Origin: an uncultured Bacteroidales bacterium
GTDB taxonomy: Bacteria; Bacteroidota; Bacteroidia; Bacteroidales; WCHB1-69
Assembly: GCA_937901925.1 (NCBI GenBank)
Contig: CALGTS010000058.1
Coordinates: 4,605-68,604, forward strand
Reading direction: 5' to 3'
Length of the DNA stretch: 64,000 bases
Position numbers and translations under genes: made by a program. The stretch's first letter is position 1; every line of letters begins with the position of its first letter. Below, piece after piece: positions 29,049 through 51,826 of the stretch. Under the pieces are notes generated by a model. The model was not told where the DNA came from, made no database searches, and worked only from the letters and a program-made list of their open reading frames with translations.

Positions 29049-30212
29049 TCACTTCGCCAGTTTACGCATATCTTGAATTACCTGCACCAACTCTTTCTGC
29101 GAATTTATCATCTCCCCATCCACAAACTGAATATCCATATTCGCGGCGATACGTTTCAAATCCTCTTTGTGGTCTTTCTTAAGCGAAAAGATATAGCTGT
29201 AGCAGGAGATTCCCAGCATCATCTCACGAAGAGCGCACACCTTATAGACAATTTCGTTAAACATTCTTTTTCCTTGCACTCCTGATTTGCATTCAATCAC
29301 AAAGAGTTTGTTATTCTTGATGCACACCACATCCAACTCGTTATTGAGACTAACGCCTTCACGACCGATATGGGGACCTATTAGCGCTTCGTCGGGTTGC
29401 AGATTCTCAATCACTTGATAATAGACATACTCCTCGAACCAGCCGCCTGTCAGATACTCCAACTCAGGTTTTAGCAAAACGCCTTTCTTGATAGGAAAGA
29501 AACATATACTATCCAAAAAAGCAGAAAGATTCGGAATTGGTGGTTCTTTTTTATCTCCACCACGTTCCACATTTCCGATATCGATTCGTTTTTCATCGCG
29601 ATAGGAGTTTCGAAGGATCTCCAGCACATCATAATCAGCATTTGTCAATTGGCCGCTGGTAAAAATAGTGAGGAATCGTTCTGCATCCTTCCTTGAGCGG
29701 ATTGGTTCGAAATCCTTTAGATTTTTGATATCATGTTTCACGGAATGAATCCGCAGATATTCCGCCACCGACATCCGATATTTGACAAGAAAGAAATGGT
29801 CATCATCATCATAGATACTATCGTCGAACACTGACTTTACGATTACATTTTTCTCCACGTCGAGGTAGTAGTAGTCGGCGTGAAACTTCTCGAACACCTG
29901 TTGCACAGCGAGAGCCATATAGTGGGTTCCGCCGGCGAGGTTCACGCAGTAGCGGACGCCAGGAACGAGGCGTGCGCGCACAGTACGGCAAATCTTCTCG
30001 TAGGTAATCTCGTCCATATCGTGTTTCAGCACCACCTCATCAATTAGGTTCGATGGAACGTCAAATTGTTCTGCCAGGGCGTCCAGATCCTCCTCAGTAT
30101 CCTTCGCGGAGATAAAGAGCAATCTATCGCCAGATTCATACATCTCCTTAATAAAGAGATATGCGGGCACAGGATTATCTTCGGTAACAATATTTACAAT
30201 AGTTTTGGGCAT
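29049..30212 (-). CDS. Can2/Card1-like cOA effector #1: N-terminal CARF + C-terminal PD-(D/E)xK nuclease
   Basis: 387 aa. CARF-like Rossmann N-terminus (IVNIVTEDNPVPAYLF...VNLAGGTHYMALAV). LTGGWFEEYVYY, then ELDVVCIKNNKLFVIECKSG (D-x13-E-x-K). Confidence 0.7.
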   Translation of the reverse strand: MPKTIVNIVTEDNPVPAYLFIKEMYESGDRLLFISAKDTEEDLDALAEQFDVPSNLIDEVVLKHDMDEITYEKICRTVRARLVPGVRYCVNLAGGTHYMALAVQQVFEKFHADYYYLDVEKNVIVKSVFDDSIYDDDDHFFLVKYRMSVAEYLRIHSVKHDIKNLKDFEPIRSRKDAERFLTIFTSGQLTNADYDVLEILRNSYRDEKRIDIGNVERGGDKKEPPIPNLSAFLDSICFFPIKKGVLLKPELEYLTGGWFEEYVYYQVIENLQPDEALIGPHIGREGVSLNNELDVVCIKNNKLFVIECKSGVQGKRMFNEIVYKVCALREMMLGISCYSYIFSLKKDHKEDLKRIAANMDIQFVDGEMINSQKELVQVIQDMRKLAK

Positions 30213-30231
30213 AAGGAATTAATTGAGGTTG

Positions 30232-30239
30232 CAAAGGTA
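30232..30239 (-). promoter_or_regulatory. -7 promoter box (TACCTTTG) for Can2-like #1
   Basis: Reverse complement of CAAAGGTA, 20-27 nt upstream of ATG 30212. Suggests this gene is its own transcription unit. Confidence 0.4.
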
Positions 30240-30305
30240 TGAAAAAATCCTTTGAACAACAAGATTGAATACTCATTAAATTTTTATAGCTGCCCTATCC
30301 AGCCC

Positions 30306-30671
30306 TCACTCATAATATCTAAATCTTTCAAATTGGAAGACAACCTCTTTTTTCTGACCAGAACTATCCATATTAACAATGCGTTTGGTTGTTGAAGCAA
30401 CACAATTTATATTCCTATTTTTCAACCTCTTAACCAAAGAATATGCAAAAGTTTGCTCTCCCATCAAATGTACAACCACATTTTCTCTTTCTGCTATGAG
30501 TAGAATTTTTTGTAAATATTCATCAGCTAACTTTGAAATATAATTTTCATCGGCAGACTCGTCAATATGAGGGAATGGCATATCTACGACTTTGCCGAAA
30601 AGTTGTATTGCTGTTCTTTTTTGCTTCTCGCTCCAAATATTTGACGGATGATTCGTAAAATTAAGTAACAT
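30306..30671 (-). CDS. 121-aa orphan Rossmann-like CRISPR-linked protein, paralog of the N-terminal domain of helicase 44707..46755
   Basis: MLLNFTNHPSNIWSEKQ...VVHLMGEQTFAYSLVKRL...NCVASTTKR...FERFRYYE. The start ATG overlaps the upstream stop (TAATG at 30669-30673). ORF-track start 30704 trimmed. I cannot assign a named family from memory. Confidence 0.5.
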   Translation of the reverse strand: MLLNFTNHPSNIWSEKQKRTAIQLFGKVVDMPFPHIDESADENYISKLADEYLQKILLIAERENVVVHLMGEQTFAYSLVKRLKNRNINCVASTTKRIVNMDSSGQKKEVVFQFERFRYYE

Positions 30672-31906
30672 TACAATATTTTTTTTAACTGTTCTGATCC
30701 ACAAATCAATTTTTTGTCTAAAATCTTTATTCTCGAAAGGGAAGCTCTATTAAGCAAGCCCTGCATTTTCTTTAATTTATTACTATCACTTCCTATATAT
30801 TCTTTAAAATCTGTCAAAGTAAAAATATAGGATTTTGCAAACAACCCAAATTTTGTTTTCAAAGCATCTGATTTATAAATAGTTTCACCTAATATTTCAA
30901 CTGGTTTTTCAATTAAAATTGGATTATTATTTTCATCAAAACAAAGTTTCCCCTTCTTATCCTTCTTCTGTTTTTGCTCTATATTTATGATTGACGTTTT
31001 ACATTCAATTATATGAAATTCGCCATTTTTCATAAACATCACATCAATTTCATTGGGTGTATAGTCTTCGCTTGTATCTTTAATTCCAAAATCTGCAATA
31101 GGATTAAGGTCTTTTTTGTCAGCAATTTCTTTTCTAATCTGTGCTCCAATTAAAATATCACCATCACCCAATTCTAATTCTTTTTTCAAACGCTCTCCAA
31201 CATATTCTTCAAACCATTCACCTGTAAGATATTTAACCTCCAATTTATCTAGACAATTTTGCTTTTTGGGAGTATAACCTATTGCGTTCAGAAATTCATT
31301 AACTCGAGAACAATCTCTTAAACCATCTTTTCTTTTCTCTCTCAGTATCTTAAGTTCCTCCTTATAGGTATCAAATACACCATTGCAAAAATGGTTAAAA
31401 ATAGAATTTGTAACATCAAATTCAACTCCGCTTGATTCTGTGGTCTCAAAATCAAACCCATACGCATATAAGTACTCTCTAATACCGATATGGGCACTTA
31501 ATTTTAACTCTTCGTACGGAGACTTCATATTCAAGCGACAATCATTTCTTCCTGTAAGGTAGTAAATTTCCGTATTACTTTTATTAACGAAATAATCATA
31601 TACTGCCAGCGACATTATCTTTGTTCCTCCAGTAATGTTCACAATTATTCTTTCGTAATTATCATACTTAATACTATTCAATTTCTGCTCAATATCACAT
31701 TGTGAATATTCATCAACTACAATTTTATAAATAGGACAATTCGTGATATTTGCAGATTTTTCAACCCATTTACACACACCTTTTCGCTCCATACTTTGTG
31801 TTGAAACAAAGAGATAATCAGGTTTCACGGACTTGTATTCCTTAATAAGTTGCACATTAGGTAAAGTCTGATCACTTACCAATGAAACCAACAATATTTT
31901 TCCCAT
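30671..31906 (-). CDS. Can2/Card1-like cOA effector #2: CARF + PD-(D/E)xK nuclease
   Basis: 411 aa. MGKILLVSLVSDQTLPNV...VNITGGTKIMSLAVY (CARF). LTGEWFEEYVGERL, then EIDVMFMKNGEFHIIECKTS (D-x13-E-x-K), with a Lys-rich insertion after the ExK. Confidence 0.7.
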   Translation of the reverse strand: MGKILLVSLVSDQTLPNVQLIKEYKSVKPDYLFVSTQSMERKGVCKWVEKSANITNCPIYKIVVDEYSQCDIEQKLNSIKYDNYERIIVNITGGTKIMSLAVYDYFVNKSNTEIYYLTGRNDCRLNMKSPYEELKLSAHIGIREYLYAYGFDFETTESSGVEFDVTNSIFNHFCNGVFDTYKEELKILREKRKDGLRDCSRVNEFLNAIGYTPKKQNCLDKLEVKYLTGEWFEEYVGERLKKELELGDGDILIGAQIRKEIADKKDLNPIADFGIKDTSEDYTPNEIDVMFMKNGEFHIIECKTSIINIEQKQKKDKKGKLCFDENNNPILIEKPVEILGETIYKSDALKTKFGLFAKSYIFTLTDFKEYIGSDSNKLKKMQGLLNRASLSRIKILDKKLICGSEQLKKIL

Positions 31907-31908
31907 AA

Positions 31909-33048
31909 TTATTTTGTATTAATGTTAAACAACTCGCTTTCCAACAAAAATTGAAGAGCCTTTTCTTCTGTTAAACCTAAATGGCTATCTTGCAACGAGA
32001 ACGACAAAATACCGTGCTCCTCGCATTTTGCTTTTGCAATATCCGTCATCTTTGCATCTGTGACAAACACCCCCTTACTACCCATGCCTCCATAGTTTTT
32101 AATAACACTACGAAATTTATCAATATCTGTTATGTTATTAATCTGCGTCTTGCACTCTACAAACAGCACTTTAGAACCTGTATTTACAACTATATCTGCT
32201 TCGTTTTTATCTACGTCTTTTTTGTACGGAAATTTGCAATTCATACAAATCTCCTTGCTTCTACTCCACGTACTGAGATATTTTGCCACTTTAAATTCAA
32301 ACCAACCACTATTAAACGCCAAATCCACTGCATTAGTAGACTCTAACTTGACCTCTTTTGACTTTCCGTTCTTTTTTATCAGAAAAACACGCACAAAGCC
32401 ATCTTGTTGTTCTGTAGTCTTTTCCCACTCCACATAAGAGCCCGAAATATGTTCAAACTTACCATATTTACAATTCTTTAAAATGTGCTGTTTTTGTTTA
32501 TCTAAAACGGTCAACAATGCATTAAATGTCTGAACAGCAAAATTTCTAATCTCCTCAATTTTCTTCATTGCTTCAACATCTGCTTCGGTGTAATCTGAGA
32601 ACTTTTTATAATTATTCTCTATAGAATTGCCATAAAGCCGAAAGTGGGTATGCATATCAAACTCAAACTCTTGCAATCCTTGCATTGTTCTATAATTCCA
32701 CAATACATTATTCTGGTCCATATAGACTATAGTAGCATTTTCCTTAGATTGGAACATTACACCAAATAGATGAGACCACGACTTCGGACCACTTGAAATA
32801 TTGACAACAACTTCATCTTTCGCGTATTGTTCTGCCAACTTTTTAACCACCTTTTGTATTTCTACGGCTTCCGTAGGCGATAATTGAACCGACTCATAAG
32901 GAACATTTATCTCCTTGATTAACGCATTCAAAGCCTTAAGACTATCTATCGAATGCACAAATACAACTTTATCTGGATTTGTTGCCTTTATCCCATTATA
33001 CACTGGAGCTGGCTGTCCTCCTACTAATGTTATGTGTATTTTACTCAT
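31909..33048 (-). CDS. Can2/Card1-like cOA effector #3: divergent CARF + PD-(D/E)xK nuclease
   Basis: MSKIHITLVGGQPAPVYNGI...VNISSGPKSWSHLF (CARF-like, with the GGT motif replaced by SGP). NSGWFEFKVAKYL, then EADIVVNTGSKVLFVECKTQ (D-x13-E-x-K). ORF-track start 33066 trimmed. Confidence 0.65.
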   Translation of the reverse strand: MSKIHITLVGGQPAPVYNGIKATNPDKVVFVHSIDSLKALNALIKEINVPYESVQLSPTEAVEIQKVVKKLAEQYAKDEVVVNISSGPKSWSHLFGVMFQSKENATIVYMDQNNVLWNYRTMQGLQEFEFDMHTHFRLYGNSIENNYKKFSDYTEADVEAMKKIEEIRNFAVQTFNALLTVLDKQKQHILKNCKYGKFEHISGSYVEWEKTTEQQDGFVRVFLIKKNGKSKEVKLESTNAVDLAFNSGWFEFKVAKYLSTWSRSKEICMNCKFPYKKDVDKNEADIVVNTGSKVLFVECKTQINNITDIDKFRSVIKNYGGMGSKGVFVTDAKMTDIAKAKCEEHGILSFSLQDSHLGLTEEKALQFLLESELFNINTK

Positions 33049-33052
33049 AAGC

Positions 33053-33631
33053 TTACATTTTTTCACACAACCTCAATGCCAACCCAGACCACAACTCAAA
33101 TTTTTCCAAATTTAGTTCTTTCGGATTTTCCCATTGGGGCAAACCGATTTCTGCGTCAAATCTCATCTGTCCCACTGCTACATTCACTCGAAAAACTACT
33201 CCGGTATGACAATGTCCTACCGATGTCTCCTCTTCGTTTATCATGCCCAACAACTCCACATCGCTATCATGCAAGGAAACGCCTACCTCCTCTCTAAACT
33301 CTCGCTTCAAACCTTGCAAAAGGGTGTTGTAAGGTGTTAACTGTTTATCTCCGTCTGTCACATGTCCGCCAATGCCTGCCGAACGGATTCCCTTCAATCG
33401 TTTTTCACTACCACATCTCTGATAGGTTAACACTTGCCCCTTTGCATTAAACACCAATGCATACGCTATCAATTGCTTGTATGTATAATCCTGCTCTAAA
33501 AATGCTCTTTTCTCAAAACACTGTGGCAATCTATTTAATTCCTCTACGGTTATTTGCCATGAGCACAAATTTAAATCAAATGCCAGCCGCATCTGCTCAA
33601 CTGGTACACATAATACATTTTCGTCTTTCAT
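33053..33631 (-). CDS. NUDIX hydrolase, translationally coupled to the CARF-adenosine deaminase
   Basis: 192 aa with a Nudix-box core ...GIGGHV...LLQGLKREFREEVGV. Its ATG overlaps the deaminase stop (ATGA at 33628-33631). Confidence 0.75.
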   Translation of the reverse strand: MKDENVLCVPVEQMRLAFDLNLCSWQITVEELNRLPQCFEKRAFLEQDYTYKQLIAYALVFNAKGQVLTYQRCGSEKRLKGIRSAGIGGHVTDGDKQLTPYNTLLQGLKREFREEVGVSLHDSDVELLGMINEEETSVGHCHTGVVFRVNVAVGQMRFDAEIGLPQWENPKELNLEKFELWSGLALRLCEKM

Positions 33632-35664
33632 AACAAATCCTGTTTTATCAATTCACTAATTTTTTCCTCAACCCTTCTTATCAACTGTTTCTTCTGCTCA
33701 TAGGGATAGAATGCTGTTCGAAAACCGTTACACGTCAATTGCAACAAATCCCACTTGGACAGACCACCTCGTGTTAGGCGTGCCGCCCTATGCAACTCTT
33801 GGGTTGGGGTTGTTAAGGAAATCCCCGGATTATCTGTATTCACTGATACCTTCAATTCGCAGTCAAGATATTTTTTCAACGGATAATCTGGCATGTTTTG
33901 AGTTCCAGAAAAATAATTATCTCTATATCCTACAATCTGATAATTACTGCTCGGGCACATCTCTATACCAATACCCCGCTCCAAAAACTTAACCATCAAA
34001 TCCTCTTTTTCTATCAACTTCAATCCATGTCCAATACGTTCTGCTGTCAAATAATAAACTGCCTCCCAAATATTTTCTGCCGGAGCTGTTTCGCCTGCGT
34101 GTATTGTGATGTTGTAACAATCTTTCATTATCTCCAGGAATTGTTCTCGCACCTCCTTAGGTGATTTGGCACTTTCATCTCCAGCCAAGTCAAAACCTCT
34201 GAAATACTTCTTAAATAAAGCATCATCCTTCAACTGTTTTGTCAGCTCTATACTCTGCAGGATTTTATCATCTCCACCATGACGAGAGGCTATCATTATA
34301 ACAGAAGTTTCCACCTCCGGTTCTCTTTCCAATTCTTCAAATATAGCTTGCAGAACTTGATTCGGGCTTAATATTGATGTCTGATAATTAATTGGAGAGC
34401 AGCGTATCTCTAGGTATGCAATATTCTCTTTTTTACACTTTGATAAGAGAATTTGGACAGTTTTCCTTATGGCAGTTTCATTACATAATAGAGCCGAACC
34501 CTGTAAATCGCCTAAACTCTCGTATGCATTAATACCTATTGACTTATAATCTGACTCTTGAATGTAATTTCCGAATATTATTTGCTCTAGTGCTCTTGGG
34601 TTATCTTCATATTCCAAAATAAATCTTGACGCAATTAATCCTTTATGAACACCTAAATGGTTTTCCAAAGCTTTATACCAATCTTTTATTGGCAACTTCT
34701 TATCATACTTACAATCCCATTTACTATAGAGTAAGTTTTGCTTTTTTTCCTTTTCAATCAAAGGTAGATAACACTTAGCTACCTCTATCATCTCTTCTGC
34801 TGTCAATACACCACCAAGATGACAATGAAGGTCTGACTTAGGCAATCGTTGCAAATACTCTAATTCCTCTTTTTGTTTTGATGGGTCGATTCCTAAATAA
34901 TCCGTTTTCAGTTCCTTAATTTTTGATGGAGGCAATGTGTAAAGGATATAAAAATTGGAACGAGTCTCTTTTTCATCCAAATAATATGTTGTATAAAAGT
35001 GTTGCGCATTTCTTTTTTGATTCTGAATATCTGTCAAAAAATCTGTATCCGGTGTACATTTTACAACAACACCTTCGTCAAAATAAAGATCCTTCACTTT
35101 CAAAACCTCATTTTTCTTGATTGCTCCTAAATTCAATGGAAAAGCCTCTTCTTTCCTATCTCCTAAAACATGTATGAGTGCATCGCACCCAAAGCAATAG
35201 GCTGCCTCCTGAAAATCAGCACTCATCGTTTTTCGTCCGCATGCCAATGATAAATACAATCTTCCGCCATCACATTGCTGTCTTGCATAAGCAATCACTT
35301 TATAAGCAAGGTCTCTGTATTGAAAAGCTTCATCATCATTAGTAATATCATTTACACCTTGCAGAACAAACAAACGAATACGTTTTACATACTTACTACA
35401 ACTTTCTTCTATCTGTTTAAAATCTTCAAAAGTTGATTTAATATCTCTGAAACTCCCTTTTTTACCTTCCCTATCGGTTGCAACAAGCCATAGTTCATCA
35501 ATAGGGAAAGAGGAAAAATCAGCCTCTTCTCTACTCGTTTGTATGCTCTGAAAGGAGACTAATTTTTCATAAAAATCAATCTCCTTAAAATTAATATACC
35601 CAACCGTCTCTTCAATAATATCAGGTTGTGCACCTAATGCCGAAACCAATATATTTTTGACCAT
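33628..35664 (-). CDS. cad1: Cad1/CAAD-type CRISPR-associated adenosine deaminase (N-terminal CARF + C-terminal ADA domain)
   Basis: 678 aa. N-terminus MVKNILVSALGAQPDIIEETVGY (CARF-like Rossmann). C-terminal ADA motifs LPKSDLHCHLGG (HxH), ITIHAGE and SVNTDNPG. Confidence 0.85.
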   Translation of the reverse strand: MVKNILVSALGAQPDIIEETVGYINFKEIDFYEKLVSFQSIQTSREEADFSSFPIDELWLVATDREGKKGSFRDIKSTFEDFKQIEESCSKYVKRIRLFVLQGVNDITNDDEAFQYRDLAYKVIAYARQQCDGGRLYLSLACGRKTMSADFQEAAYCFGCDALIHVLGDRKEEAFPLNLGAIKKNEVLKVKDLYFDEGVVVKCTPDTDFLTDIQNQKRNAQHFYTTYYLDEKETRSNFYILYTLPPSKIKELKTDYLGIDPSKQKEELEYLQRLPKSDLHCHLGGVLTAEEMIEVAKCYLPLIEKEKKQNLLYSKWDCKYDKKLPIKDWYKALENHLGVHKGLIASRFILEYEDNPRALEQIIFGNYIQESDYKSIGINAYESLGDLQGSALLCNETAIRKTVQILLSKCKKENIAYLEIRCSPINYQTSILSPNQVLQAIFEELEREPEVETSVIMIASRHGGDDKILQSIELTKQLKDDALFKKYFRGFDLAGDESAKSPKEVREQFLEIMKDCYNITIHAGETAPAENIWEAVYYLTAERIGHGLKLIEKEDLMVKFLERGIGIEMCPSSNYQIVGYRDNYFSGTQNMPDYPLKKYLDCELKVSVNTDNPGISLTTPTQELHRAARLTRGGLSKWDLLQLTCNGFRTAFYPYEQKKQLIRRVEEKISELIKQDLL

Positions 35665-35693: not shown

Positions 35694-35993
35694 CTACAAC
35701 TCCATTACCTTTGGACAAGTTACTTTCAATATCTCCTTGCGAATATCATCAGGTACAACTCCGCCTCCATAATACCTCAAACTTACAACATTGGTTACAT
35801 TCTGTACCGTAAAATGCTTTTGTCTTATTTTAAATGAGCCACAACTTAATTCTACTTTTTTCCAAAACTGGTTACGTATATCGGTATAGAACACGTAAAA
35901 TATTGCAATATTAGCCATTGCTCTAACAGCTGATATAAAAACAACATAACTATTGAACCACTCCGAAATTACATCAAGAATATCTTTTTCCAT
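35694..35993 (-). CDS. Hypothetical 99-aa protein with one predicted TM helix
   Basis: ORF only. Hydrophobic segment YVVFISAVRAMANIAIFYVFY. Ends 29 nt upstream of the cad1 start. Confidence 0.35.
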   Translation of the reverse strand: MEKDILDVISEWFNSYVVFISAVRAMANIAIFYVFYTDIRNQFWKKVELSCGSFKIRQKHFTVQNVTNVVSLRYYGGGVVPDDIRKEILKVTCPKVMEL

Positions 35994-36030: not shown

Positions 36031-37371
36031 TCATAACTCTTTCTCTAATATTCGCTCAATCTGTCCGACATAATAAAACGGAACATTAATCAACTTAAAT
36101 TGTTTTCCTTTGAAAGTTGTCACATTATCAACAGAATAAGGATTAGACCAAACTCTGATTGCGATGGCGTGCGGAGCTTTCTCCATAAAAAGATGCAACG
36201 ATTTGAGTTTAGCATTATGCCCAGACTTTACCTCTATTGGAACTACTAAATTTCTGAACTGATATAGAAAATCGACCTCGGCATCCGAGCCATCCTTATC
36301 TCTGCGCCAATAGTTATGACGAAGTGACACATCGTTGTCATACGCCACAAGCTCTTGGGCAACTATATGTTCTGCTATTCTACCTCTCCACACTTCACAT
36401 ATATCTTTTGCCGAAAAAACATCATCCTGAACCTTTGAGGCATAATTGACAATACCCGTATCCACCCACAACAATTTAGGGCGTTTCTTAAAATTAGGTA
36501 ATATCGGTATGTGAGTATCTGATGTGGGATAGACCAATTCTGTCAGCATGGCTTTTTCAATAATTTGGAAAGCCTCGCTCATTTCTCGCGACCGATAGTT
36601 AGAACCTCCAAAGCCTTCGAACGAAATGGTCTCTGCAGCGCACTGCCACCCATAAGTCATTATTGTACGTATCACCTTCACCATTGTTTTGCTACTTGTA
36701 TATTTCTCTACATCATCTTTGTAGGCTTGCAACAATGAATTGAACACGCTTGAACACGACAAGAGATCTCTTCGCTTTGCATATTGCATAATCACAGCAG
36801 GCATTCCGCCTACCAGAATATACTCGCGAAAAAGCTGCATTACTCGGTGATGTACAACAGAATCAACGTTGAAACTCGTTACAAGATTTCTATCAAAATC
36901 TTCGCCAATACCGTCCAAAAACTCCCAAAAAGAACATGGCCGTAAAGACATAAACTGCACTCGTCCTACAGGGAATGAAATTTTACGAACATCCATCACC
37001 GTCTCTAACAAAGAACCTGCCACTATTACATGAATATCCTTTGCCTCTTCGTAAAAATAGCGAAGAATTGCCACCGCTTTCTTAGAGTTTTGTATCTCAT
37101 CAATAAAAAGTAGCACAGAACCATCGATTTGTTCCTGTTTTTTATAGAAATAGATAGATTTCAACAATTGATGCACATCATCTGTCTGCTCAAACAATTC
37201 AGAATCTCGACTTCGTTCAAGATTAAGATACAAAAAAGTATCAAAATCCTTTGCAAACTCTTTCACCAAGGTTGTTTTACCAACTTGACGAACGCCCCTG
37301 ATTATTAAAGGTTTTCTATCTTCAGAACTTCTCCATTCTTTTAGTTTATTTATTGCCAATCTTCTTATCAT
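36031..37371 (-). CDS. AAA+ ATPase with C-terminal DUF4143 (PD-(D/E)xK-like) domain
   Basis: Walker A GVRQVGKTT, Walker B LLFIDEIQ, C-terminal DAEVDFLYQFRNLVVPIEVKSG. 446 aa. Confidence 0.8.
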   Translation of the reverse strand: MIRRLAINKLKEWRSSEDRKPLIIRGVRQVGKTTLVKEFAKDFDTFLYLNLERSRDSELFEQTDDVHQLLKSIYFYKKQEQIDGSVLLFIDEIQNSKKAVAILRYFYEEAKDIHVIVAGSLLETVMDVRKISFPVGRVQFMSLRPCSFWEFLDGIGEDFDRNLVTSFNVDSVVHHRVMQLFREYILVGGMPAVIMQYAKRRDLLSCSSVFNSLLQAYKDDVEKYTSSKTMVKVIRTIMTYGWQCAAETISFEGFGGSNYRSREMSEAFQIIEKAMLTELVYPTSDTHIPILPNFKKRPKLLWVDTGIVNYASKVQDDVFSAKDICEVWRGRIAEHIVAQELVAYDNDVSLRHNYWRRDKDGSDAEVDFLYQFRNLVVPIEVKSGHNAKLKSLHLFMEKAPHAIAIRVWSNPYSVDNVTTFKGKQFKLINVPFYYVGQIERILEKEL

Positions 37372-40442: not shown

Positions 40443-40928
40443 TTAATCTTTACCTCCGTTAGCTTTATGATAAGCCAAAACCGCCTCCATAAGATTGCAA
40501 AAATTCAAATAAGATTTCTGATTCGTAACATAAACAAAACACTCATCAAATAATTTTTTAAAAAGTTTGAGCCCTTCATTTTTTTCATCTCTTCCTAGTG
40601 CATAAGCAACTTTCGGTTTCAACAAATAAAAAGAGGACTTCTCCTTTTCAAATTCACCCATTTGAATTCTCTTTATTTCGCCGTACACATTACGAATTTT
40701 AGAGTTTGTAAGACCATTTTTTGCCATAAACTCGCCAACTTTTTCTGCAAAATCAACCAAATCTGGCGTTGCTCCATTTATAATCCACTCACGATTATAT
40801 GCAGGGTCTAATTTACTCCAAAACGTATCTGACTTAGACGATCTATCGCTTGAAGCAAAACCGCCCCCATTGTTACCTCCGTGAGGTCTGTCATTTCGTC
40901 TGTTTGTATTAAAATTCATATTACTCAT
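40443..40928 (-). CDS. csm2: Type III-A small subunit Csm2 (Cas11)
   Basis: 161 aa, helical, located between cas10 and csm3. Has a Gly/Asn-rich N-terminal extension. Confidence 0.7.
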   Translation of the reverse strand: MSNMNFNTNRRNDRPHGGNNGGGFASSDRSSKSDTFWSKLDPAYNREWIINGATPDLVDFAEKVGEFMAKNGLTNSKIRNVYGEIKRIQMGEFEKEKSSFYLLKPKVAYALGRDEKNEGLKLFKKLFDECFVYVTNQKSYLNFCNLMEAVLAYHKANGGKD

Positions 40929-43486: not shown

Positions 43487-44179
43487 TCATTTTTTTACAT
43501 TTCTCTTCATCATTTTCACCATTCCCATGCCGAGGCTGGTACCTTTTCCCAGTCCGCAGAAGTCGGGTAAGGAGACGTTGGTCTTGAATTCCACGTCGAA
43601 ACTCATCATCTTGACACCCTTATAGAGTTCCAGACGGGGTTCCTCCATTTTTAAAATCTCACAAGTAATGTCTCGTTCAAGGCGTATGCCCAGACCTTTA
43701 CACATTGAGAGTATATTGCCCACCAAAATCCGCTGCAGGAACTCTGCCCGCGCAGCCAACCCTTCTAATTGTAAAAACTCATTGTAATTGTTAGAGTTAA
43801 AAGGTAACCATTTACGCAGGGTGTAACGAAAAGTGTCGTCCCACGCCTGCACTAAAATTTGCTTGGCATCTACACTGTCAATCTCAAAACGCTCCTGCTC
43901 TCGGTTGCCAATCTGCAAGTCGAAGTCGCACGACGAGAAGAACTCACCAATCGCCTCAACCCCATCACCAATACAAACTATTGCCGCCTTCCCACCAATC
44001 CGCTTATATTGTATCAGCGGATATGAGTAGCGCAAACCCTCTTCAGTATGACCACTAAAGAACTCATCGTGCGGAGTACCACAAACACGATCCAAAACTG
44101 CGCCACGGAAGAATCTAATCTCAGTTTGCCGTAATGGATTTTTAAATCTCACAACCAACAATTTAATTCTTGCACCCAT
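43487..44179 (-). CDS. cas6: Cas6-like crRNA endoribonuclease
   Basis: 230-aa RAMP-like protein with a C-terminal glycine-rich loop CGLGKGTSLGMGMV. First gene of the interference operon. Confidence 0.65.
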   Translation of the reverse strand: MGARIKLLVVRFKNPLRQTEIRFFRGAVLDRVCGTPHDEFFSGHTEEGLRYSYPLIQYKRIGGKAAIVCIGDGVEAIGEFFSSCDFDLQIGNREQERFEIDSVDAKQILVQAWDDTFRYTLRKWLPFNSNNYNEFLQLEGLAARAEFLQRILVGNILSMCKGLGIRLERDITCEILKMEEPRLELYKGVKMMSFDVEFKTNVSLPDFCGLGKGTSLGMGMVKMMKRNVKK

Positions 44180-44218
44180 ATCGTTCTAAAACTTTTTCAA
44201 AATAAATCTAACCATCTG

Positions 44219-44706: not shown

Positions 44707-46755
44707 ATGTTAATAAACTTCTCTAATTATCCTTCCCAAAAGTGGAGCGCCGAACAATTAGCTCAAGCAAAGAAACAATTTGGCGGCGTAACAGACCTAA
44801 AATTTCCCAATGTAAATCCCAATTGCACAGAATCTGATATTGCAAACCTGACCAATATCTTCTATCAGAAAATTCAGAAAATTGTAAAAAACATAAAAAG
44901 AACGGAAGAGATTACCGTTCTTATTATGGGCGAAAGCACGCTCACCTTTACCCTACTCACACGACTTTTAGGTTCAGGTATTCCTTGCGTGGCTTCTTGT
45001 TACCAAATCGATACAATTAAAAATGAGAATGGTAAAAAAGAGAGTATTAGGAAATTTGTAAAATTCAGATACTACAATAGTTATACTCAACCGAAGGCGG
45101 ATTCTAACATTATAAAAGCGGTTTGTCCCCAGCTGACACCTCCTATTGTAAAGGGAAAGATTGACCTTGATACATTAAAACAGGAGACAAGGCCGATCAA
45201 GAAGAGTCAGCAGCCACCTATTACTCCCCCTTTGCCCACTCTTCCTAAAAGCCTAAAAGATATAAAACTCACCGCCCATCAAAAAGAGGCGTTAGATAGT
45301 ATAAAGCGATTTATTAACGATGATAGTAAACGCATTTTTATTCTGAAGGGATTTGCGGGTACAGGAAAAACTACACTTACACGTTTTCTTTTAGAACATC
45401 TTAAAAAGGAGAAAATTGATGTTTCTCTTATGGCACCTACTGGACGAGCAGCCAAGATTCTATCTAACCTTAGCAATTATCCAGCGGCTACCATTCACTC
45501 TAGTATTTATAAGTTCAACGATTTAAACAAAGATTTACCAGAGGAAAAATTAGAGGAGTTAACTGCCGACCAAACTGGACAGTTGTATCTTACTTTCTAC
45601 CCTACTCGAACAACTTTTGATGATCAGTATAAAGGGAAAATCTATATTATTGATGAAGCCTCAATGATTTCTGACATAGAAGAGCTTTTGATATCGCAAG
45701 CAAAATATGGTAGTGGCAAGTTACTCACTGAACTATTGGAATATGACAAACACCCCAAAAGCAAATTTATCTTTATTGGAGACCCGTGTCAATTGCCACC
45801 CATACGCGGGCTTGAATCTCCCGCATTATCACCAAGTTACTTGCAAAAACATTTTAATTGCAGTGCCGATGAGTTCACGTTAACTGAAATTATGCGACAA
45901 GCAGGCGATAGCGACTTGATTATGGCGACAAAAAAAATCCGCGAACTCCGAGAAAATGCCCCTTTGGAAGAGGATTCATTTTCTGACTCCTGGGCACGAC
46001 TACCGTTAAGAGACTGCAAAGAAACCCATATTTATCCTGACATTGATTCTATGTTAGGAAAACATATCGAATTGATCAAAAGTAATGGCTATAATGATTC
46101 TATATTTATTTGCGGAAGCAATAGGAGGAGAAACCAATATTCTGCAAAAATCAGAAGAAGTTTGGGATTTTCCTCCCCACAAGTTGAAAAAGGCGATTTA
46201 CTGATGGTAATTCAAAACAATATACCTACGGGATTACTTAATGGTGATATGGTTGAGGTTCTTCGTGTCGATTCTCAACGCACCTATAGAGCCAATTGCA
46301 CATTTATCAATATTCACGTCAGAGAACTATTTACCCCAAAAGAACACAATGTACTACTAATGGAACAGCCCTTAAACCACAACTCTCTCAATATCAGCAC
46401 CGATATGCAAACAAACCTATTTATAGACTTTGCTCAAAGGATGAATAAAAATGGAATCACCCAAAATAAACATCCAAAAGAGTTTCAGAAAGCCTTAATG
46501 GAAGACCCCTATTTAAATGCTTTACGTTGCCACTACGGATACGCCATAACGTGCCATAAAGCGCAAGGGGGCGAATGGAACAATGTGTTTATTGATTTTG
46601 GACTAAATATAAAAAATCCAACCCAAGAGAAATACCAATGGATCTATACTGCAGTTACAAGAGCCAGAACGGGACTACACGTATTAGACAAACCTTATAT
46701 TTGCAACTTGGACGGAACCTTAGGAACTCCTTTTTACGAAACGATTTTTTTATAA
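44707..46755 (+). CDS. SF1 RecD/Dda-like helicase (AAA_30 + UvrD_C_2-like) with N-terminal orphan domain paralogous to ORF 30306..30671
   Basis: Residues 1-125 run MLINFSNYPSQKWSAEQ...IMGESTLTFTLLTRL...PCVASC...FVKFRYYN. A Pro-rich linker follows. Helicase motifs: GFAGTGKTT (Walker A), MAPTGRAAKIL, IYIIDEASMIS, FIFIGDPCQLPPI, GYAITCHKAQGGEW, YTAVTRAR. Confidence 0.8.
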   Translation: MLINFSNYPSQKWSAEQLAQAKKQFGGVTDLKFPNVNPNCTESDIANLTNIFYQKIQKIVKNIKRTEEITVLIMGESTLTFTLLTRLLGSGIPCVASCYQIDTIKNENGKKESIRKFVKFRYYNSYTQPKADSNIIKAVCPQLTPPIVKGKIDLDTLKQETRPIKKSQQPPITPPLPTLPKSLKDIKLTAHQKEALDSIKRFINDDSKRIFILKGFAGTGKTTLTRFLLEHLKKEKIDVSLMAPTGRAAKILSNLSNYPAATIHSSIYKFNDLNKDLPEEKLEELTADQTGQLYLTFYPTRTTFDDQYKGKIYIIDEASMISDIEELLISQAKYGSGKLLTELLEYDKHPKSKFIFIGDPCQLPPIRGLESPALSPSYLQKHFNCSADEFTLTEIMRQAGDSDLIMATKKIRELRENAPLEEDSFSDSWARLPLRDCKETHIYPDIDSMLGKHIELIKSNGYNDSIFICGSNRRRNQYSAKIRRSLGFSSPQVEKGDLLMVIQNNIPTGLLNGDMVEVLRVDSQRTYRANCTFINIHVRELFTPKEHNVLLMEQPLNHNSLNISTDMQTNLFIDFAQRMNKNGITQNKHPKEFQKALMEDPYLNALRCHYGYAITCHKAQGGEWNNVFIDFGLNIKNPTQEKYQWIYTAVTRARTGLHVLDKPYICNLDGTLGTPFYETIFL

Positions 46756-46764: not shown

Positions 46765-47748
46765 ATGGAACTTATAATCAGCACTTTTGGCACATCACTC
46801 AACCGTGAAAATGAAGGTTTTGTCATCACTACAACAGAAGGAAGACAGCGCATTCCGGCAGAAGGAATTACCTCGATTCAAATTAGTCGTGGCGCGCAAA
46901 TCTCTTCCGATGCGGTAATGTTAGCAATGGAAAAAGAGATTGAGGTGCTATTTATGGATAAAAATGGCAATGTAACAGGCAGAATCTGGAGCCCCAAATA
47001 TGGTTCTGTTTCCACAATACGCAAAGGGCAGCTCAATTTCTCATTCTCTACAGAAGCTATCCGATGGATCAAAGAGGTTATCTGCCAAAAAATTGAAAAC
47101 CAACAAGCCCTGCTGCTCACTTTTGAGAGTTCTGACATTATGATTCAGAATCACGTTCAGAAATCGATACGCAGGCTAGAAGATTACCGCACGAAAGTTT
47201 CCACCATCAACGGAGAGGTAATCTCGGATATAGCCTCCACTTTAAGAGGTTGGGAGGGATTATCGTCGAAAATCTATTTTGAAACGCTAAACCTTTTTCT
47301 TCCAGAACAATACCGTTTTGAAAAAAGAAGTCAACATCCTGCTACCGATGTTGCAAATGCATTTCTGAACTACGGCTACGGCGTTCTATACGGGAAAGTA
47401 GAGGGCGCACTCATCAAAGCAGGCATTGACCCATATATTGGAGTTTTACACCGCGACGACTACAACCGCCCCGTATTGGTGTATGACGTCATCGAACTCT
47501 ATCGCGTTTGGGTTGATTATGTAGTTTTTACCCTTTTAACCCAAAATGTAATTACTGATGAATTCTATTCTGTACAATCAGATGGCTCCTATTGGTTAGA
47601 ATCTTTAGGAAGACGAGTACTGATACAATCGCTAAACGATTATTTGGAAGAAACTATTGAAGTAAATGGAAATAGTCGTTCTCGTGCCTATCAAATTTTT
47701 CTATATGCTCAGAAGCTAGCACAACAATTTAAAAAAGCAGAACGATGA
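46765..47748 (+). CDS. cas1: Cas1 integrase
   Basis: 327 aa. NAFLNYGYGVLYGKVEGALIKAGIDPYIGVLHRDDYNRPVLVYDVIELYR, the Cas1 C-terminal catalytic region. Confidence 0.9.
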   Translation: MELIISTFGTSLNRENEGFVITTTEGRQRIPAEGITSIQISRGAQISSDAVMLAMEKEIEVLFMDKNGNVTGRIWSPKYGSVSTIRKGQLNFSFSTEAIRWIKEVICQKIENQQALLLTFESSDIMIQNHVQKSIRRLEDYRTKVSTINGEVISDIASTLRGWEGLSSKIYFETLNLFLPEQYRFEKRSQHPATDVANAFLNYGYGVLYGKVEGALIKAGIDPYIGVLHRDDYNRPVLVYDVIELYRVWVDYVVFTLLTQNVITDEFYSVQSDGSYWLESLGRRVLIQSLNDYLEETIEVNGNSRSRAYQIFLYAQKLAQQFKKAER

Positions 47749-48761
47749 TACTATTTGGCAAAAACATAATTTCTTCGGGAGATGTTTTGACCAAAGTTCC
47801 TATTGTCAAAATCTTCCATGCGCTTAAAAATCCCAAAAGCGAAACGATTGCTCAAATTCGGCAACTCCGGATTGTTAGAAAGATAGATATCAAACGATAT
47901 AATACTCTCAAACGGCAACTTCCCTACTTCGTTTGTGGAATCTTCACACCACCACTTCGAAAAAGTGAAAACTTTGCCTACATTGAATATTTCATTCTAG
48001 ATATTGATAAAATTACCGAAAAAGGTCTCAGTGTTCAAGATTTACGCCAAAAGATAGAGAAAGATAATCGTGTTTTGCTCTGTTTCATTTCACCAAGTGA
48101 AGATGGTATTAAAATCCTATTCAAATTAAAAGAACGTTGCTACGACAAAGGTATTTTCTCGTTGTTTTACAAAACATTTGCCCAGCAATTTGCTCGACAA
48201 TACAACATTGAGCAGGTAATTGATAATCAAACTTGCGATGTAACGCGCGCTTGCTTTGTTAGCATTGACCCTCAAGCCTACTACAATCCTAATGCAGCAA
48301 CGATAGAAATTGAAAAATTCTTACAAATTAACAATCCTACAGAGATGTTTGATATCAAACATCAATTTGAAATTCAAGAAAAAGAACATAGAAAAGAGAT
48401 TGTAACTCCTGTTTCAGAAAAAGTTGATGTGGACGATGAGGTGATTCGGAATGTCAAGATGATTTTAAACCCCAAACTAGCACAGAAAGAGGAGAAAAAA
48501 GTATATATCCCCGAGCAGCTAACGGATATTATGGAAGAGTTGCAGAAATATATCACGGCAACAGGCATTCAGATTACAGAAATCATCAACATATCATACG
48601 GAAAAAAGATACGAATGAAATCACGCACCAAGCAGGCAGAGGTAAATGTTTTCTATGGAAAGAGAGGATTTTCTGTAGTAAAATCTCCACGAAGTGGAAC
48701 TAATGAAGAACTTAACGAACTGATGGCATCGCTTATACAATCATTTTTTGACCAAAACTAA
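47745..48761 (+). CDS. CRISPR-associated Prim-Pol (CAPP-like; archaeo-eukaryotic primase superfamily, BT4734/VirE-N-like)
   Basis: AEP-like motifs YFILDIDK (DxD), FISPSEDGIKILFKL and CDVTRACFVSIDPQAYYN. Its ATG overlaps the cas1 stop (ATGA), and its stop lies 4 nt before the cas2 ATG. Confidence 0.65.
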   Translation: MILFGKNIISSGDVLTKVPIVKIFHALKNPKSETIAQIRQLRIVRKIDIKRYNTLKRQLPYFVCGIFTPPLRKSENFAYIEYFILDIDKITEKGLSVQDLRQKIEKDNRVLLCFISPSEDGIKILFKLKERCYDKGIFSLFYKTFAQQFARQYNIEQVIDNQTCDVTRACFVSIDPQAYYNPNAATIEIEKFLQINNPTEMFDIKHQFEIQEKEHRKEIVTPVSEKVDVDDEVIRNVKMILNPKLAQKEEKKVYIPEQLTDIMEELQKYITATGIQITEIINISYGKKIRMKSRTKQAEVNVFYGKRGFSVVKSPRSGTNEELNELMASLIQSFFDQN

Positions 48762-48765
48762 CACA

Positions 48766-49257
48766 ATGCCGAGAAAAAAGAAACCGCCACTTACTTTTGT
48801 GGAGAAGATGAAAAAACTATATGCCGCAGGATTAAAACCGACGGAAGTTTCGGAGATTGCATCTGATGACATTGACTCCAACCAATCGTTACTTCCGTTA
48901 GAGAAAAGAGTTGAGCTATTATTTAATATTGTAAAGAATAAAAAAAGGGCAGCCACACAGATGTTATTTTTTGTAATGTATGATATAGAGAGCAATCGAG
49001 TTCGTCGGCAGATTGTCAAATATTTAGAGCGGCAAGGATGCACCCGGGTGCAGAAATCTATTTTTCTTGCAGACTTACCGATTTCGCAGTACGAACAGAT
49101 AAAATCGGATTTAGCGGAAGTGCAAGCTTGTTATGAAAACTTTGATAGTATTTTGGTAGTACCTATTTCAACTGATTACCTCAAAGCGATGAAAGTTATC
49201 GGGCAAAGCATCAATGTAGATGTAATTACCAAAAGTTCCAATACACTATTTTTCTAA
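48766..49257 (+). CDS. cas2: Cas2 with ~65-aa N-terminal extension
   Basis: Cas2 core MLFFVMYDIESNRVRRQIVKYLERQGCTRVQKSIFLADL. Preceded by MPRKKKPPLTFVEKMKKLYAAGLKPTEVSEIA... (HTH-like). The TTG at 48748 is an alternative start. Confidence 0.8.
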   Translation: MPRKKKPPLTFVEKMKKLYAAGLKPTEVSEIASDDIDSNQSLLPLEKRVELLFNIVKNKKRAATQMLFFVMYDIESNRVRRQIVKYLERQGCTRVQKSIFLADLPISQYEQIKSDLAEVQACYENFDSILVVPISTDYLKAMKVIGQSINVDVITKSSNTLFF

Positions 49258-49410
49258 AAAAAACGTTGCATTTGCAACAAAACAAAATATATTACGTTCT
49301 TTGCTTATTGAAAAAATAAAATTTAGGTACATAAAAAAGGGAAAAAACGAGAAAAAAAACGGATATTACACTTATAACACATTAATAATCAACAGGGTCT
49401 ATTTTTTGCT
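49258..49410 (+). promoter_or_regulatory. CRISPR leader
   Basis: AT-rich 153 nt between cas2 and the first intact repeat. The degenerate repeat lies at the opposite end of the array. Confidence 0.6.
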
Positions 49411-51826
49411 CTCCAAGAGCAACTTCCACTAAAATAAGGATTAAGACTTCTGCGCAAATCGTGATTGCTACGCTCGAATCCTTTACTCCAAGAGCAACTT
49501 CCACTAAAATAAGGATTAAGACCCCCACCATAAAAAACACTAAAAATGGAAAAAAACGAGAAGCTCCAAGAGCAACTTCCACTAAAATAAGGATTAAGAC
49601 TGTTCATTTCGTTTGCGTTTGCGGTGCTGTTTACAGCTCCAAGAGCAACTTCCACTAAAATAAGGATTAAGACCATTTAGTCCTAAGTATAATGTGTGTT
49701 TTTTCATAACCTCCAAGAGCAACTTCCACTAAAATAAGGATTAAGACTTCATAAAAATGGCACTATCCTTTACATCTTGTTGTCTCCAAGAGCAACTTCC
49801 ACTAAAATAAGGATTAAGACTCTTATAAATGTATTGTTCCGCATAGAATAGACACCTCCAAGAGCAACTTCCACTAAAATAAGGATTAAGACTTCAATTC
49901 TCAGTGTTTTTTCGAAAACAACTGTACCGTCTCCAAGAGCAACTTCCACTAAAATAAGGATTAAGACTTTTTTTATTGTTTTATTAAGGTTGATCACAGC
50001 AATTCTCCAAGAGCAACTTCCACTAAAATAAGGATTAAGACTGTTATTATTAAGGTCGATCACATTCATCTTGTAGTCTCCAAGAGCAACTTCCACTAAA
50101 ATAAGGATTAAGACCCACCTCTGCCAACGTGGAATAGAAAATGTTTTTCTTGCTCCAAGAGCAACTTCCACTAAAATAAGGATTAAGACTGTGAACTTAC
50201 TATAATTATTTTCATAATATAATACGACTCCAAGAGCAACTTCCACTAAAATAAGGATTAAGACTCTATCTCTCTTTCTATCAATCTTTTAGCCAAAGTC
50301 TCCAAGAGCAACTTCCACTAAAATAAGGATTAAGACAGGGTAAGCATTTACCACCCCTAATTTTATTAGTCTTCTCCAAGAGCAACTTCCACTAAAAAAA
50401 GGATTAAGACCTTACGGGAATTTCCCGAACAGACAGATTTTTCTGCCTCCAAGAGCAACTTCCACTAAAAAAAGGATTAAGACTTCGTAAGTTTTTTTAT
50501 CTGGCACTCCGCCATTACCTCCAAGAGCAACTTCCACTAAAAAAAGGATTAAGACTATGTCGTTATAAGTACAAAATTCAAAATCGTTTAAGCTCCAAGA
50601 GCAACTTCCACTAAAAAAAGGATTAAGACTGCTCGGTCAAAACCTCGTGCCAGCTTGGATCAGTATATTCTCCAAGAGCAACTTCCACTAAAATAAGGAT
50701 TAAGACGAGAAGTATATTTTAAAAAATCATTCATAAATTAATAAGGCTCCAAGAGCAACTTCCACTAAAATAAGGATTAAGACGTAACACACAAACGTCC
50801 ATCCTTGATGCTCCCTTGCAGACTCCAAGAGCAACTTCCACTAAAATAAGGATTAAGACCTATATTTTGATAAGTCATTCATATTAATATGGCAAACCCT
50901 CCAAGAGCAACTTCCACTAAAATAAGGATTAAGACGTTCAAATCTTTTGATGTAATAAACCACCTGCACAAGCCTCCAAGAGCAACTTCCACTAAAATAA
51001 GGATTAAGACATTGATTTTGCTATCGAATTGTTTGAAAATGTTACCTCCAAGAGCAACTTCCACTAAAATAAGGATTAAGACATTTCATAGTTACGATTT
51101 AATACCATAAAATCAAGCGTCTCCAAGAGCAACTTCCACTAAAATAAGGATTAAGACAAGCAATATTCGCCGTGCTGGCGAACTGATGCACCTTTTAACT
51201 CCAAGAGCAACTTCCACTAAAATAAGGATTAAGACGGGTCTATGTATGTTGTAAAGTCCTTAATCGGTAGTCTCCAAGAGCAACTTCCACTAAAACAAGG
51301 ATTAAGACGTTGTTATTATTGTTGTTTTTTTACACTGCAAAGATCTCCAAGAGCAACTTCCACTAAAATAAGGATTAAGACTATTATTTTTCTTTATATT
51401 TTTGATAAGTTCCGTCTTCTCCAAGAGCAACTTCCACTAAAATAAGGATTAAGACTTCATCAAACATATAACTCATATCAGTGATATCTCCAACCTCCAA
51501 GAGCAACTTCCACTAAAACAAGGATTAAGACTGCTTATATCGTCAGTTATATACCATCGACCCATCGCTCCAAGAGCAACTTCCACTAAAATAAGGATTA
51601 AGACCCTTGTATCCATAGGTTCTACCTTTAAATACGATAACTCCAAGAGCAACTTCCACTAAAACAAGGATTAAGACTCTTGCGTATTTGCATAATAATT
51701 TTTGAATATGTCGTCTCCAAGAGCAACTTCCATTAAAACAAGGATTAAGACAATAACAAATCTTTTTCGTTCTGTGTCATAATTAATGCCTCCAAGAGCA
51801 ACTTCCACTAAAATAGATATTTAGGA
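49411..51826 (+). CRISPR. CRISPR array: 33 repeats of 37 nt, 32 spacers of 35-41 nt
   Basis: Repeat is CTCCAAGAGCAACTTCCACTAAAATAAGGATTAAGAC. First repeat at 49411-49447. The last (51790-51826) is degenerate in its 3' half. The 3' octamer ATTAAGAC resembles the type III crRNA 5' tag. I enumerated all repeat starts by hand. Confidence 0.97.

Follow-up and report, generated by a model that had tools for sequence, protein, structure and literature searches.

How is the signal switched off in a CRISPR-Cas locus of type III where a single Cas10 stands beside a whole battery of CARF effectors? The question is raised by positions 29,049 to 51,826 of a 64,000-nucleotide stretch from an uncultured Bacteroidales bacterium (contig CALGTS010000058.1); the whole stretch is called the window below. 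A sequence-only reading of this DNA had described the type III-A island as a candidate novel system with no recognisable ring nuclease, had listed one of its products, a protein of 121 aa, as an 'orphan-domain' protein, and had left open how the cyclic oligoadenylate (cOA) signal is ended. We found that the 121-aa protein matches the Csx20 family of ring nucleases. The locus is very probably a chromosomal type III-A (Csm) CRISPR-Cas system that is apparently functional and built from known modules.

Csx20 in the effector cassette

The gene that bears on the question is the following.

30306..30671, minus strand: csx20, stand-alone canonical (predicted) ring nuclease, 121 aa (PADLOC PDLC01397, Pfam PF27247)

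The PADLOC profile PDLC01397 matched residues 1-120 of the protein with its full length (profile positions 1-114 of 114, E = 4.7e-38), and the Csx20 part of PDLC01843, a model of Csx1-Csx20 fusions, matched it at E = 1e-22. The precomputed Pfam family of the protein is PF27247; our own Pfam search was empty because this family is newer than the Pfam release searched. The description as an orphan domain is refuted by these matches. The polar residues conserved in the family (H8, H68, T94, T/S95 and R97) are all present. An AlphaFold2 model built with 30 homologues had a predicted local distance difference test score (pLDDT) of 96.1, and its Foldseek neighbours were mostly cOA-binding CARF/SAVED domains, including Crn1 Sso2081, Sso1393 and Sis0811 (7YGH, 3QYF and 7PQ3). 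A sequence search of the PDB with the protein gave nothing at E ≤ 1, no Csx20 structure has been solved, and PHROGs contained no match for it.

The prediction that Csx20 is a ring nuclease dates from 2020 (Makarova), and in 2025 one representative was found to degrade cyclic tetraadenylate (cA4) in vitro (Hoikkala et al. 2025, PMC12409355). According to the same survey, Csx20 has a derived CARF-like fold and is the commonest ring nuclease of type III loci; the tested protein is specific for cA4, and ring nucleases co-occur only with cA4 effectors (PMC12409355). Effectors of the Can1-2 class do not degrade their own activator, which is why a ring nuclease is encoded in 66% of Can1-2 loci (PMC12409355). 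In the window, csx20 lies between the genes for nucleases 2 and 3 of the effector cassette, and the beginning of the gene shares 1 nt with the nuclease 2 stop codon. With csx20 in the middle of the cassette, the off-switch would therefore be encoded there, its activity being predicted from family membership. Consequently, the statement that no ring nuclease is recognisable was wrong, and the switch-off that had been called open has a canonical candidate gene from a family with one member known to degrade cA4. We see the main value of the analysis in this correction: a large cA4-type effector battery is paired with a dedicated Csx20, and is not a system without an off-switch. The locus fits the published rule that effectors lacking a self-limiting activity travel with a ring nuclease.

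Effectors, interference complex and proposed mechanism

The effectors and their partner are encoded as follows.

33628..35664, minus strand: cad1/CAAD, CARF-adenosine deaminase, 678 aa (PADLOC PDLC01908 CARF_ADA over the full length, E = 2e-192; Pfam A_deaminase, E = 7e-47; Cas_NE0113)
33053..33631, minus strand: NUDIX hydrolase, Cad1 partner (Pfam NUDIX, E = 5e-7; Nudix box core REFREEVGV at residue 110)
31909..33066, minus strand: CARF-PD-(D/E)xK nuclease 1, Can2 family (PDLC01889, E = 8e-147; closest solved structure 8BAO, E = 5e-73; D..ECK)
30671..31906, minus strand: CARF-PD-(D/E)xK nuclease 2, with a Card1-like CARF domain (Pfam CARF_Card1, E = 3e-36; Card1 6WXW, E = 3e-25; D...ECK)
29049..30212, minus strand: CARF-PD-(D/E)xK nuclease 3, Card1-like over its full length (CARF_Card1 and Card1_endonuc; full-length Card1 alignment; D...ECK)

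PADLOC, Pfam and the motifs bore out the CARF-adenosine deaminase, the NUDIX protein and the three CARF-PD-(D/E)xK nucleases of the sequence-only reading, and CARF profiles (CARF_ADA or CARF_Card1) matched all four effectors. Cad1 carries the CARF lysine in GRKT (residues 143-146), which aligned with GIKS of 9C67, and the deaminase motifs HCH280 (HxH), HAGE522 and NTD609. It matched the PDB sequences 9C67, 9EBT and 8Z3K at E = 1e-46 to 4e-54, with 9C67 being the best (E = 4e-54). The genes for Cad1 and the NUDIX protein overlap by 4 bp. All three nucleases matched both Pfam CARF_Card1 and Card1_endonuc as well as PADLOC CARF_PDDEXK (E = 1e-47 to 8e-147), and nuclease 2 has an insertion of ~40 aa after its ECK motif. 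Since their pairwise identity is only 20-27%, the nucleases are judged to be old, distinct subfamilies that did not arise by recent duplication.

Three such nucleases side by side could be non-redundant, each tuned to a different cOA species or to a different substrate (DNA or RNA), and could together form a multi-channel response that resists the ring nucleases and sponges of phages. Their low pairwise identity agrees with this idea, as do the different closest solved relatives (8BAO, Card1 and Card1/Can2), the different CARF loops (GPK in nuclease 1, GGT in the other two) and the maintenance of all three at about 99% identity across strains. However, the characterised Can1, Can2 and Card1 are all activated by cA4, and surveys found one cOA species per locus in general (PMC11229360). 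We regard such a division of labour as rather doubtful. A literature search for PDB 8BAO returned unrelated papers only.

The signal generator is encoded upstream on the same strand.

43487..44179, minus strand: cas6, Cas6b-like crRNA endonuclease, 230 aa (Pfam Cas6b_C, E = 1e-33; Cas6b_N, E = 4e-20)
40956..43478, minus strand: cas10/csm1, 840 aa (TIGR02578, E = 1.5e-183, above the cut-off of 170 bits)
40443..40928, minus strand: csm2, small subunit (Pfam Csm2_III-A, E = 2e-22)
39755..40402, minus strand: csm3, RAMP protein (Pfam RAMPs, E = 5e-24)
38763..39758, minus strand: csm4 (Pfam Csm4_C, E = 9e-20)
37642..38841, minus strand: csm5, RAMP protein (Pfam RAMPs, E = 4e-19)

Pfam and TIGR02578 confirmed the genes and coordinates of the minus-strand cluster that had been read as running from 44179 to 29049 with cas6, cas10 and csm2-5. 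Csm2 and the RAMP proteins Csm3, Csm4 and Csm5 are encoded in a single operon, with Cas6 and the CRISPR array adjoining, which places the locus in type III-A. The two Cas10 motifs said to be intact were both located, the HD at residues 16-17 (LHDIGK) and the GGDD of the cyclase at 637-640 (SGGDDVFVVG). The true start of csm5 is probably an internal Met near 38766, because the strain contig L003 calls this gene at 374 aa. Profile searches covered the island open reading frames (ORFs) of at least 85 aa, and among these no match to HEPN (Csm6), Crn1, Crn2 or Crn3 was obtained, just as had been claimed.

The gene content and motifs were seen directly, and the ligand and enzymatic steps proposed here follow characterised family members. 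Cas6 would process the crRNAs of the 33-repeat array. Binding of target RNA by the Csm complex would then activate Cas10, which on the basis of its GGDD cyclase motif is expected to synthesise cOA, most likely mainly cA4. This species is favoured because Can1-2 effectors are activated by it, ring nucleases occur only with cA4 effectors, the tested Csx20 is specific for it, and loci tend to use a single cOA (PMC12409355, PMC11229360). The messenger would bind the CARF domains of the four effectors. The Cad1 characterised in a Bacteroidales III-A locus turns ATP into ITP when cA4 or cA6 binds, and leaves these ligands uncleaved (Baca et al. 2024, PMC11645235); the Cad1 of the window may likewise produce ITP, to be processed by the NUDIX partner from the overlapping gene, while the three deeply diverged Can2/Card1-family PD-(D/E)xK nucleases would cut nucleic acids. 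Csx20 would degrade cA4 and so reset the system, and new spacers would be acquired by a Bacteroidota CAPP_B module (RecD-like helicase, Cas1, primase-polymerase and Cas2). Gene content and motifs bear out the earlier description of one Cas10 beside four CARF sensor-effectors whose outputs are of two sorts, the deamination of ATP and the cutting of nucleic acids.

Several points weigh against this account. The NCBIfam equivalog model for Csx20, NF040559, covered only the C-terminal two thirds of the 121-aa protein at 28.1 bits (E = 2e-6), below its cut-off of 70; the protein therefore belongs to a Csx20 subfamily other than that of the model. The Foldseek matches of its predicted structure to PDB entries were individually weak (best E = 7e-4, template modelling (TM) scores of 0.35-0.5). 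The activities of the window proteins are assigned by homology, and cA4 is proposed from the effector and ring nuclease families only. Cad1 responds to cA6 as well (PMC11645235), and the nucleases, at 20-27% identity, could differ in ligand. As to activity against known phage, a search of IMG/VR with three 26-nt spacer cores yielded no exact match.

Could the locus nevertheless be a novel multi-effector system without a ring nuclease, in which termination is unexplained or falls to the effectors or other genes? The missing Crn1, Crn2, Crn3 and HEPN/Csm6 matches would fit, together with the empty Pfam result and the NCBIfam score for the 121-aa protein. Against this stand the full-length match to the Csx20 profile, membership in PF27247, the retained family residues and the apparently CARF-like fold, as well as the experimental confirmation of a Csx20 as a cA4 ring nuclease (PMC12409355) and the fact that the other modules have all been published. 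We consider this alternative highly improbable and retain the reading in which Csx20 serves as the off-switch.

In order to judge the size of the battery, we compared the window with 35 sister CAPP_B loci fetched from reference genomes, all of them from Bacteroidota. These were annotated with single-sequence hidden Markov models made for the survey, which miss other effector types, so that the counts are lower bounds. Sixteen of them extend 9 kb or more upstream; 3 of these 16 had no Can2/Card1-like gene, 11 had one and 2 had two, and Cad1 was found in a single locus. With three nucleases and Cad1, the window has the highest effector gene count in the set surveyed. The earlier impression of an effector number beyond the usual therefore holds for genes, with three of the Can2/Card1-like kind here and at most two in these sister loci, but not for classes, of which the window has only two (Cad1 and Can1-2). 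Loci with two classes are fairly common among cA4 systems, and three classes per locus are rare (PMC11229360). The sister metagenome-assembled genome (MAG) L013-15 has three: besides Cad1 with its NUDIX partner, it encodes the same kind of ATPase as the window, a Can2-like nuclease, Csx1 and Csx20. The cassette of the window itself was found at 98-99% identity in several metagenome assemblies, and related architectures occur in sister Bacteroidales MAGs.

Two further genes inside the effector cassette, and a Csx20 domain on the helicase described below, had been missed in the sequence-only reading.

36031..37371, minus strand: AAA_14/DUF4143 ATPase, PADLOC candidate family PDC-S01 (Pfam/PADLOC)
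35694..35993, minus strand: orf99, conserved small protein of 99 aa with an N-terminal hydrophobic helix
37372..37641, minus strand: 270-bp gap upstream of the ATPase, containing ACCGTCGTTTTATTACAAAA twice and one TAnnTTTG in the right orientation

The AAA_14/DUF4143 ATPase recurs in the effector region of at least five sister loci. The orf99 product (~98 aa) was found only in type III loci of Bacteroidales and Paludibacteraceae (26 clusters), has the invariant core SCG..F.I...FT.QNVTN.VSL, and is encoded between csx20 and recD in L017 and L019. It matched no family, PHROGs included, and its AlphaFold2 model is uncertain (pLDDT 73, predicted TM score 0.37). PHROGs also gave no match for an 85-aa ORF at 44186-44443. 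The 270-bp gap adjoins a breakpoint of the Csm cassette swap described below (~37523) and is a possible internal promoter for the effector cassette. The Bacteroidota -7 consensus TAnnTTTG occurs exactly once and correctly oriented in each of the four gaps that precede nuclease 3, the ATPase, cas6 and the helicase, at 30232, 37403 and 44219 on the minus strand and at 44607 on the plus strand; about 0.5-1 chance hit was expected. This weakly suggests four transcription units in the island. Scans for sigma-70 promoters and intrinsic terminators showed no excess over shuffled sequence, with models that suit Bacteroidota poorly.

Csx20 at the adaptation helicase

A second Csx20 domain was found at the start of the adaptation operon.

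44707..46755, plus strand: fusion protein of 682 aa (degenerate Csx20 domain, residues 1-123; Pro-rich linker, 124-185; RecD2-like SF1B helicase, 186-682)

Residues 1-123 matched PADLOC Csx20 at E = 1.8e-23 and are 38% identical to the stand-alone protein. Given this identity and the absence of DNA similarity, the two copies were rejected as a recent duplication or as drivers of recombination. More than one ring nuclease is present in only about 4% of ring-nuclease-positive loci (PMC12409355). Among the 120 best helicase homologues, the Csx20 domain was found in only three close relatives (76-97% identity). In sister loci csx20 is a separate gene that immediately precedes recD, the two sharing 4-8 bp at the start of recD. 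For 24 sister loci the upstream sequence was sufficient to count: csx20 was present in 20, recD in 19 and both in 18, in 16 of which they were adjacent and in none fused. The pair has also stayed together in the rearranged loci L025 and L026. We infer that the neighbouring csx20 gene became fused to the N-terminus of the helicase in this lineage. An exhaustive search of 1.8 billion representative proteins found a second Csx20-RecD fusion, P0350, 37% identical to the window helicase. In eight further proteins (P0302, P0317, P0329, P0371, P0411, P0431, P0435 and P0405) an N-terminal Csx20 was followed by 380-450 aa with no Pfam match, except that one has a glycosyltransferase domain.

The five polar positions of the family are kept in at least 22 stand-alone or C-terminally fused Csx20 sequences and in P0350. 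The fused domain of this lineage has Y8, L68, C94, Y95 and I97 in their place, and a relative of 76% identity is intermediate at these positions. All of the structural core residues are kept. The fused copy evolves faster, with 32-45% identity to other Csx20 sequences compared with 40-61% for the stand-alone copy. The ratio of nonsynonymous to synonymous substitution rates (dN/dS) was 0.25 for the 123 codons of the fused domain and 0.14 for the helicase core. Because of the former value we conclude that the fused domain is kept by purifying selection; judging by the residues exchanged, it is probably no longer a nuclease.

What does the fused domain do? On the ordinary reading, the effector module simply ends with csx20, which was fused with its downstream neighbour. 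Such a fusion could even be a neutral accident, in which the overlapping genes became one when a stop codon was lost; the N-terminal domain would now serve only for dimerisation or structure, or keep a weak remnant of ring nuclease activity. With an overlap of 4-8 bp in sister loci, a single mutation could have fused them; the Pro-rich linker looks unstructured, and the faster evolution of the fused copy would fit. On the other hand, a dN/dS of 0.25 over 123 codons argues against neutrality, the structural core is intact, and the fusion persists in relatives down to 76% identity and in the deeply diverged P0350. We hold an accident to be possible, with the balance tilting against it.

A second proposal, which would add to the account of Csx20 as off-switch, is that the helicase-fused Csx20 is a putative cOA sensor, which would bind cA4 but leave it intact and would activate or recruit the helicase. 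Spacer acquisition by Cas1, CAPP and Cas2 would in this way be coupled to the signalling of Cas10 in interference. The adjacency of csx20 and recD in 16 of the 18 sister loci that have both speaks for it, as do the pair left intact in L025 and L026, the separate fusion in P0350, the replaced polar residues in a domain held by selection, and the canonical stand-alone Csx20 that can carry the nuclease role in the same locus. It is further known that DbCas1 binds DbRecD (PMC8211822). However, loss of catalysis in the fused domain is a guess, the exchanged residues could equally have abolished binding, and the independent fusion P0350 keeps all of the canonical ones. The adjacency has a simpler account: csx20 is last in the effector module, where it often follows or is fused to Csx1, and recD is first in the adaptation module. 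Csx1-Csx20 fusions lie directly upstream of recD in L021, L025 and L030, and in L013 csx20 follows Csx1. The link between cOA and adaptation is itself hypothetical, and we rate a sensor as improbable. Equally speculative is the consequence that spacers would come preferentially from the invader being detected, a second-messenger analogue of primed adaptation. If the proposal were true, the csx20-recD pairing of Bacteroidota CAPP_B loci would be a physical and functional partnership and more than two neighbouring modules. In any case, with a ring nuclease domain genetically tied to an adaptation helicase, the idea that cOA signalling and spacer acquisition are connected becomes open to test. 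No mention of Csx20 in connection with helicases or adaptation was found in the literature that could be searched. Candidates longer than 250 aa fell outside the ring nuclease survey (PMC12409355), which was therefore blind to Csx20-helicase fusions.

The remainder of the adaptation operon and the array are as follows.

46765..47748, plus strand: cas1 (Pfam Cas_Cas1, E = 3e-67)
47745..48761, plus strand: CRISPR-associated primase-polymerase type B, CAPP_B (NF040562, E = 7e-130, above the cut-off of 200 bits)
48748..49257, plus strand: cas2 with an N-terminal extension of ~70 aa (Pfam CRISPR_Cas2, E = 2e-13, residues 72-146)
49258..49410, plus strand: probable CRISPR leader (inferred)
49411..51826, plus strand: CRISPR array of 33 repeats of 37 bp (CTCCAAGAGCAACTTCCACTAAAATAAGGATTAAGAC, 3' tag ATTAAGAC) and 32 unique spacers of 35-41 bp

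The operon is divergent from the minus-strand cas/effector cluster. It had been called unusual, but NF040562 identifies it as the published CAPP_B operon of Bacteroidota type III systems, in which Cas1 interacts with RecD, as DbCas1 does with DbRecD (Zabrady et al. 2021, PMC8211822). The order RecD-Cas1-CAPP_B-Cas2 is shared by 19 of the 24 sister loci, and the closest CAPP match in a reference genome was 65% identical. The leader was placed beside cas2 because the degenerate terminal repeat marks the opposite end of the array. Position 51826, where the array stops, is also where the region of the sequence-only reading ends. Single-base repeat variants occur in blocks (50374-50629 and 51272-51751): repeats 14-17 share AAAAAAAGG, and several of the leader-distal repeats share AAAACAAGG, which fits the age structure of the array. 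Allowing up to 6 mismatches, the spacers matched nothing in the rest of the 64-kb window.

Strain variation and comparison with known systems

Strains related to the window differ in individual modules. The strain contigs L001 and L002 are 96-99% identical to the window on both flanks and have no nucleotide similarity from ~43399 to 37523. There they carry a distant homologous cas10-csm5 set (Cas10 of ~860 aa, Csm5 of 570 aa), but have the same cas6, adaptation genes and effector cassette as the window; this looks like an allelic replacement of the interference complex. In L010, a relative of 84-88% nucleotide identity, orf99 directly precedes nuclease 1 (L010:526-691). Since Cad1 and NUDIX (window 33053-35664) are missing there as a unit, they behave as a two-gene indel module. 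In L004 and L005, ~21 kb were lost, with the penultimate CRISPR repeat (51715-51751) joined to ~30779 inside nuclease 2. This deletion removed the array, adaptation genes, csm genes, Cad1, NUDIX and nuclease 1, and csx20 and nuclease 3 remain intact; no clear microhomology was found at the junction. The CRISPR-less strains were rejected as an ancestral empty site, because they still have two CRISPR repeats as well as the 3' end of nuclease 2. Together, the swapped Cas10-Csm cassette, the Cad1-NUDIX indel and the deletion of the whole locus make up a natural series on the contribution of each module.

A dispersed intergenic repeat of ~150 bp, with copies 72-82% identical, was noted at ~2044-2201, 5750-5933, 51985-52132 and 55804-55948, one copy lying between the CRISPR array and alaS. 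The island is flanked by a DHH/DHHA1 (NrnA-like) phosphoesterase (25704-26714, plus strand) and a LigT/2H phosphoesterase (56025-56606, minus strand). Both are core genes that the CRISPR-less strains have as well. It is conceivable that their products process the linear A2>p left by the ring nuclease, but nothing ties them to the system.

Every module of the locus has already been published: Cad1 (PMC11645235), the CAAD-Nudix pair (PMC12993439), Card1/Can2 and the RecD-Cas1-CAPP_B-Cas2 operon (PMC8211822). The proposal of a novel system is thus unsupported at the system level. As far as the searchable literature shows, what is new is the adjacency and fusion of csx20 and recD and the strain variation of the locus.

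The Cad1 locus of Baca et al. (PMC11645235; 9C67) is likewise a Bacteroidales III-A locus with cad1 downstream of the cas10-csm genes, and its Cad1 has the same arrangement of CARF domain, linker and adenosine deaminase. The two Cad1 proteins are distant orthologues with a partial alignment (a 600-aa PDB chain compared with 678 aa here). In the window, the ATPase and orf99 stand between csm5 and cad1, and NUDIX, the three nucleases and Csx20 follow. Some Cad1 CARF domains are cA4 ring nucleases (PMC12993439, PMC12669630); TaqCad1 cleaves cA4, whereas BbaCad1 does not. The CAAD-Nudix pair has been described (Li et al. 2024 Science, cited in PMC12993439; PMC12669630), and of 121 CAAD systems, 76% have one or more further CARF effectors, for instance Csm6, Card1 or Csx1 (PMC12993439). 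The window resembles the CAAD-Nudix and CAAD + Csx1 systems in that NUDIX directly follows the deaminase and further CARF effectors would respond to the same signal, but the extra effectors here are three Can2/Card1 paralogues, without Csx1. These share with Card1/Can2 (6WXW, 7BDV and 8BAO) the CARF_Card1 and Card1_endonuc domains, the motifs GGWFEEYVY and D...ECK and a length of about 385-411 aa; the window differs in having three divergent copies in one operon, compared with 0-2 in the sister loci surveyed.

The stand-alone Csx20 agrees with published Csx20 (PMC12409355) in size (~120 aa), in its setting in a type III locus with cA4-type effectors, in its strong profile match and, as far as the weak Foldseek matches suggest, in a CARF-like fold, but scored below the NCBIfam equivalog cut-off and is accompanied by a second Csx20 domain on the helicase. 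The Dysgonomonadaceae CAPP_B operon (PMC8211822) also has a RecD-like helicase, Cas1, CAPP_B and Cas2 beside a type III locus, an arrangement confined to Bacteroidota. Csx20 is not mentioned in that work, though csx20 precedes recD in most sister loci; in the window the helicase carries an N-terminal Csx20 and the operon is divergent from the csm genes. Ring nuclease domains joined to CRISPR-associated enzymes have a precedent in the effector fusions Csx1-Crn2 ('fuse to defuse') and Csx1-Csx20 (PDLC01843). In the window, by contrast, the Csx20 domain is attached not to a cOA-activated effector but to an adaptation helicase, it is N-terminal, and it has lost five conserved polar residues.

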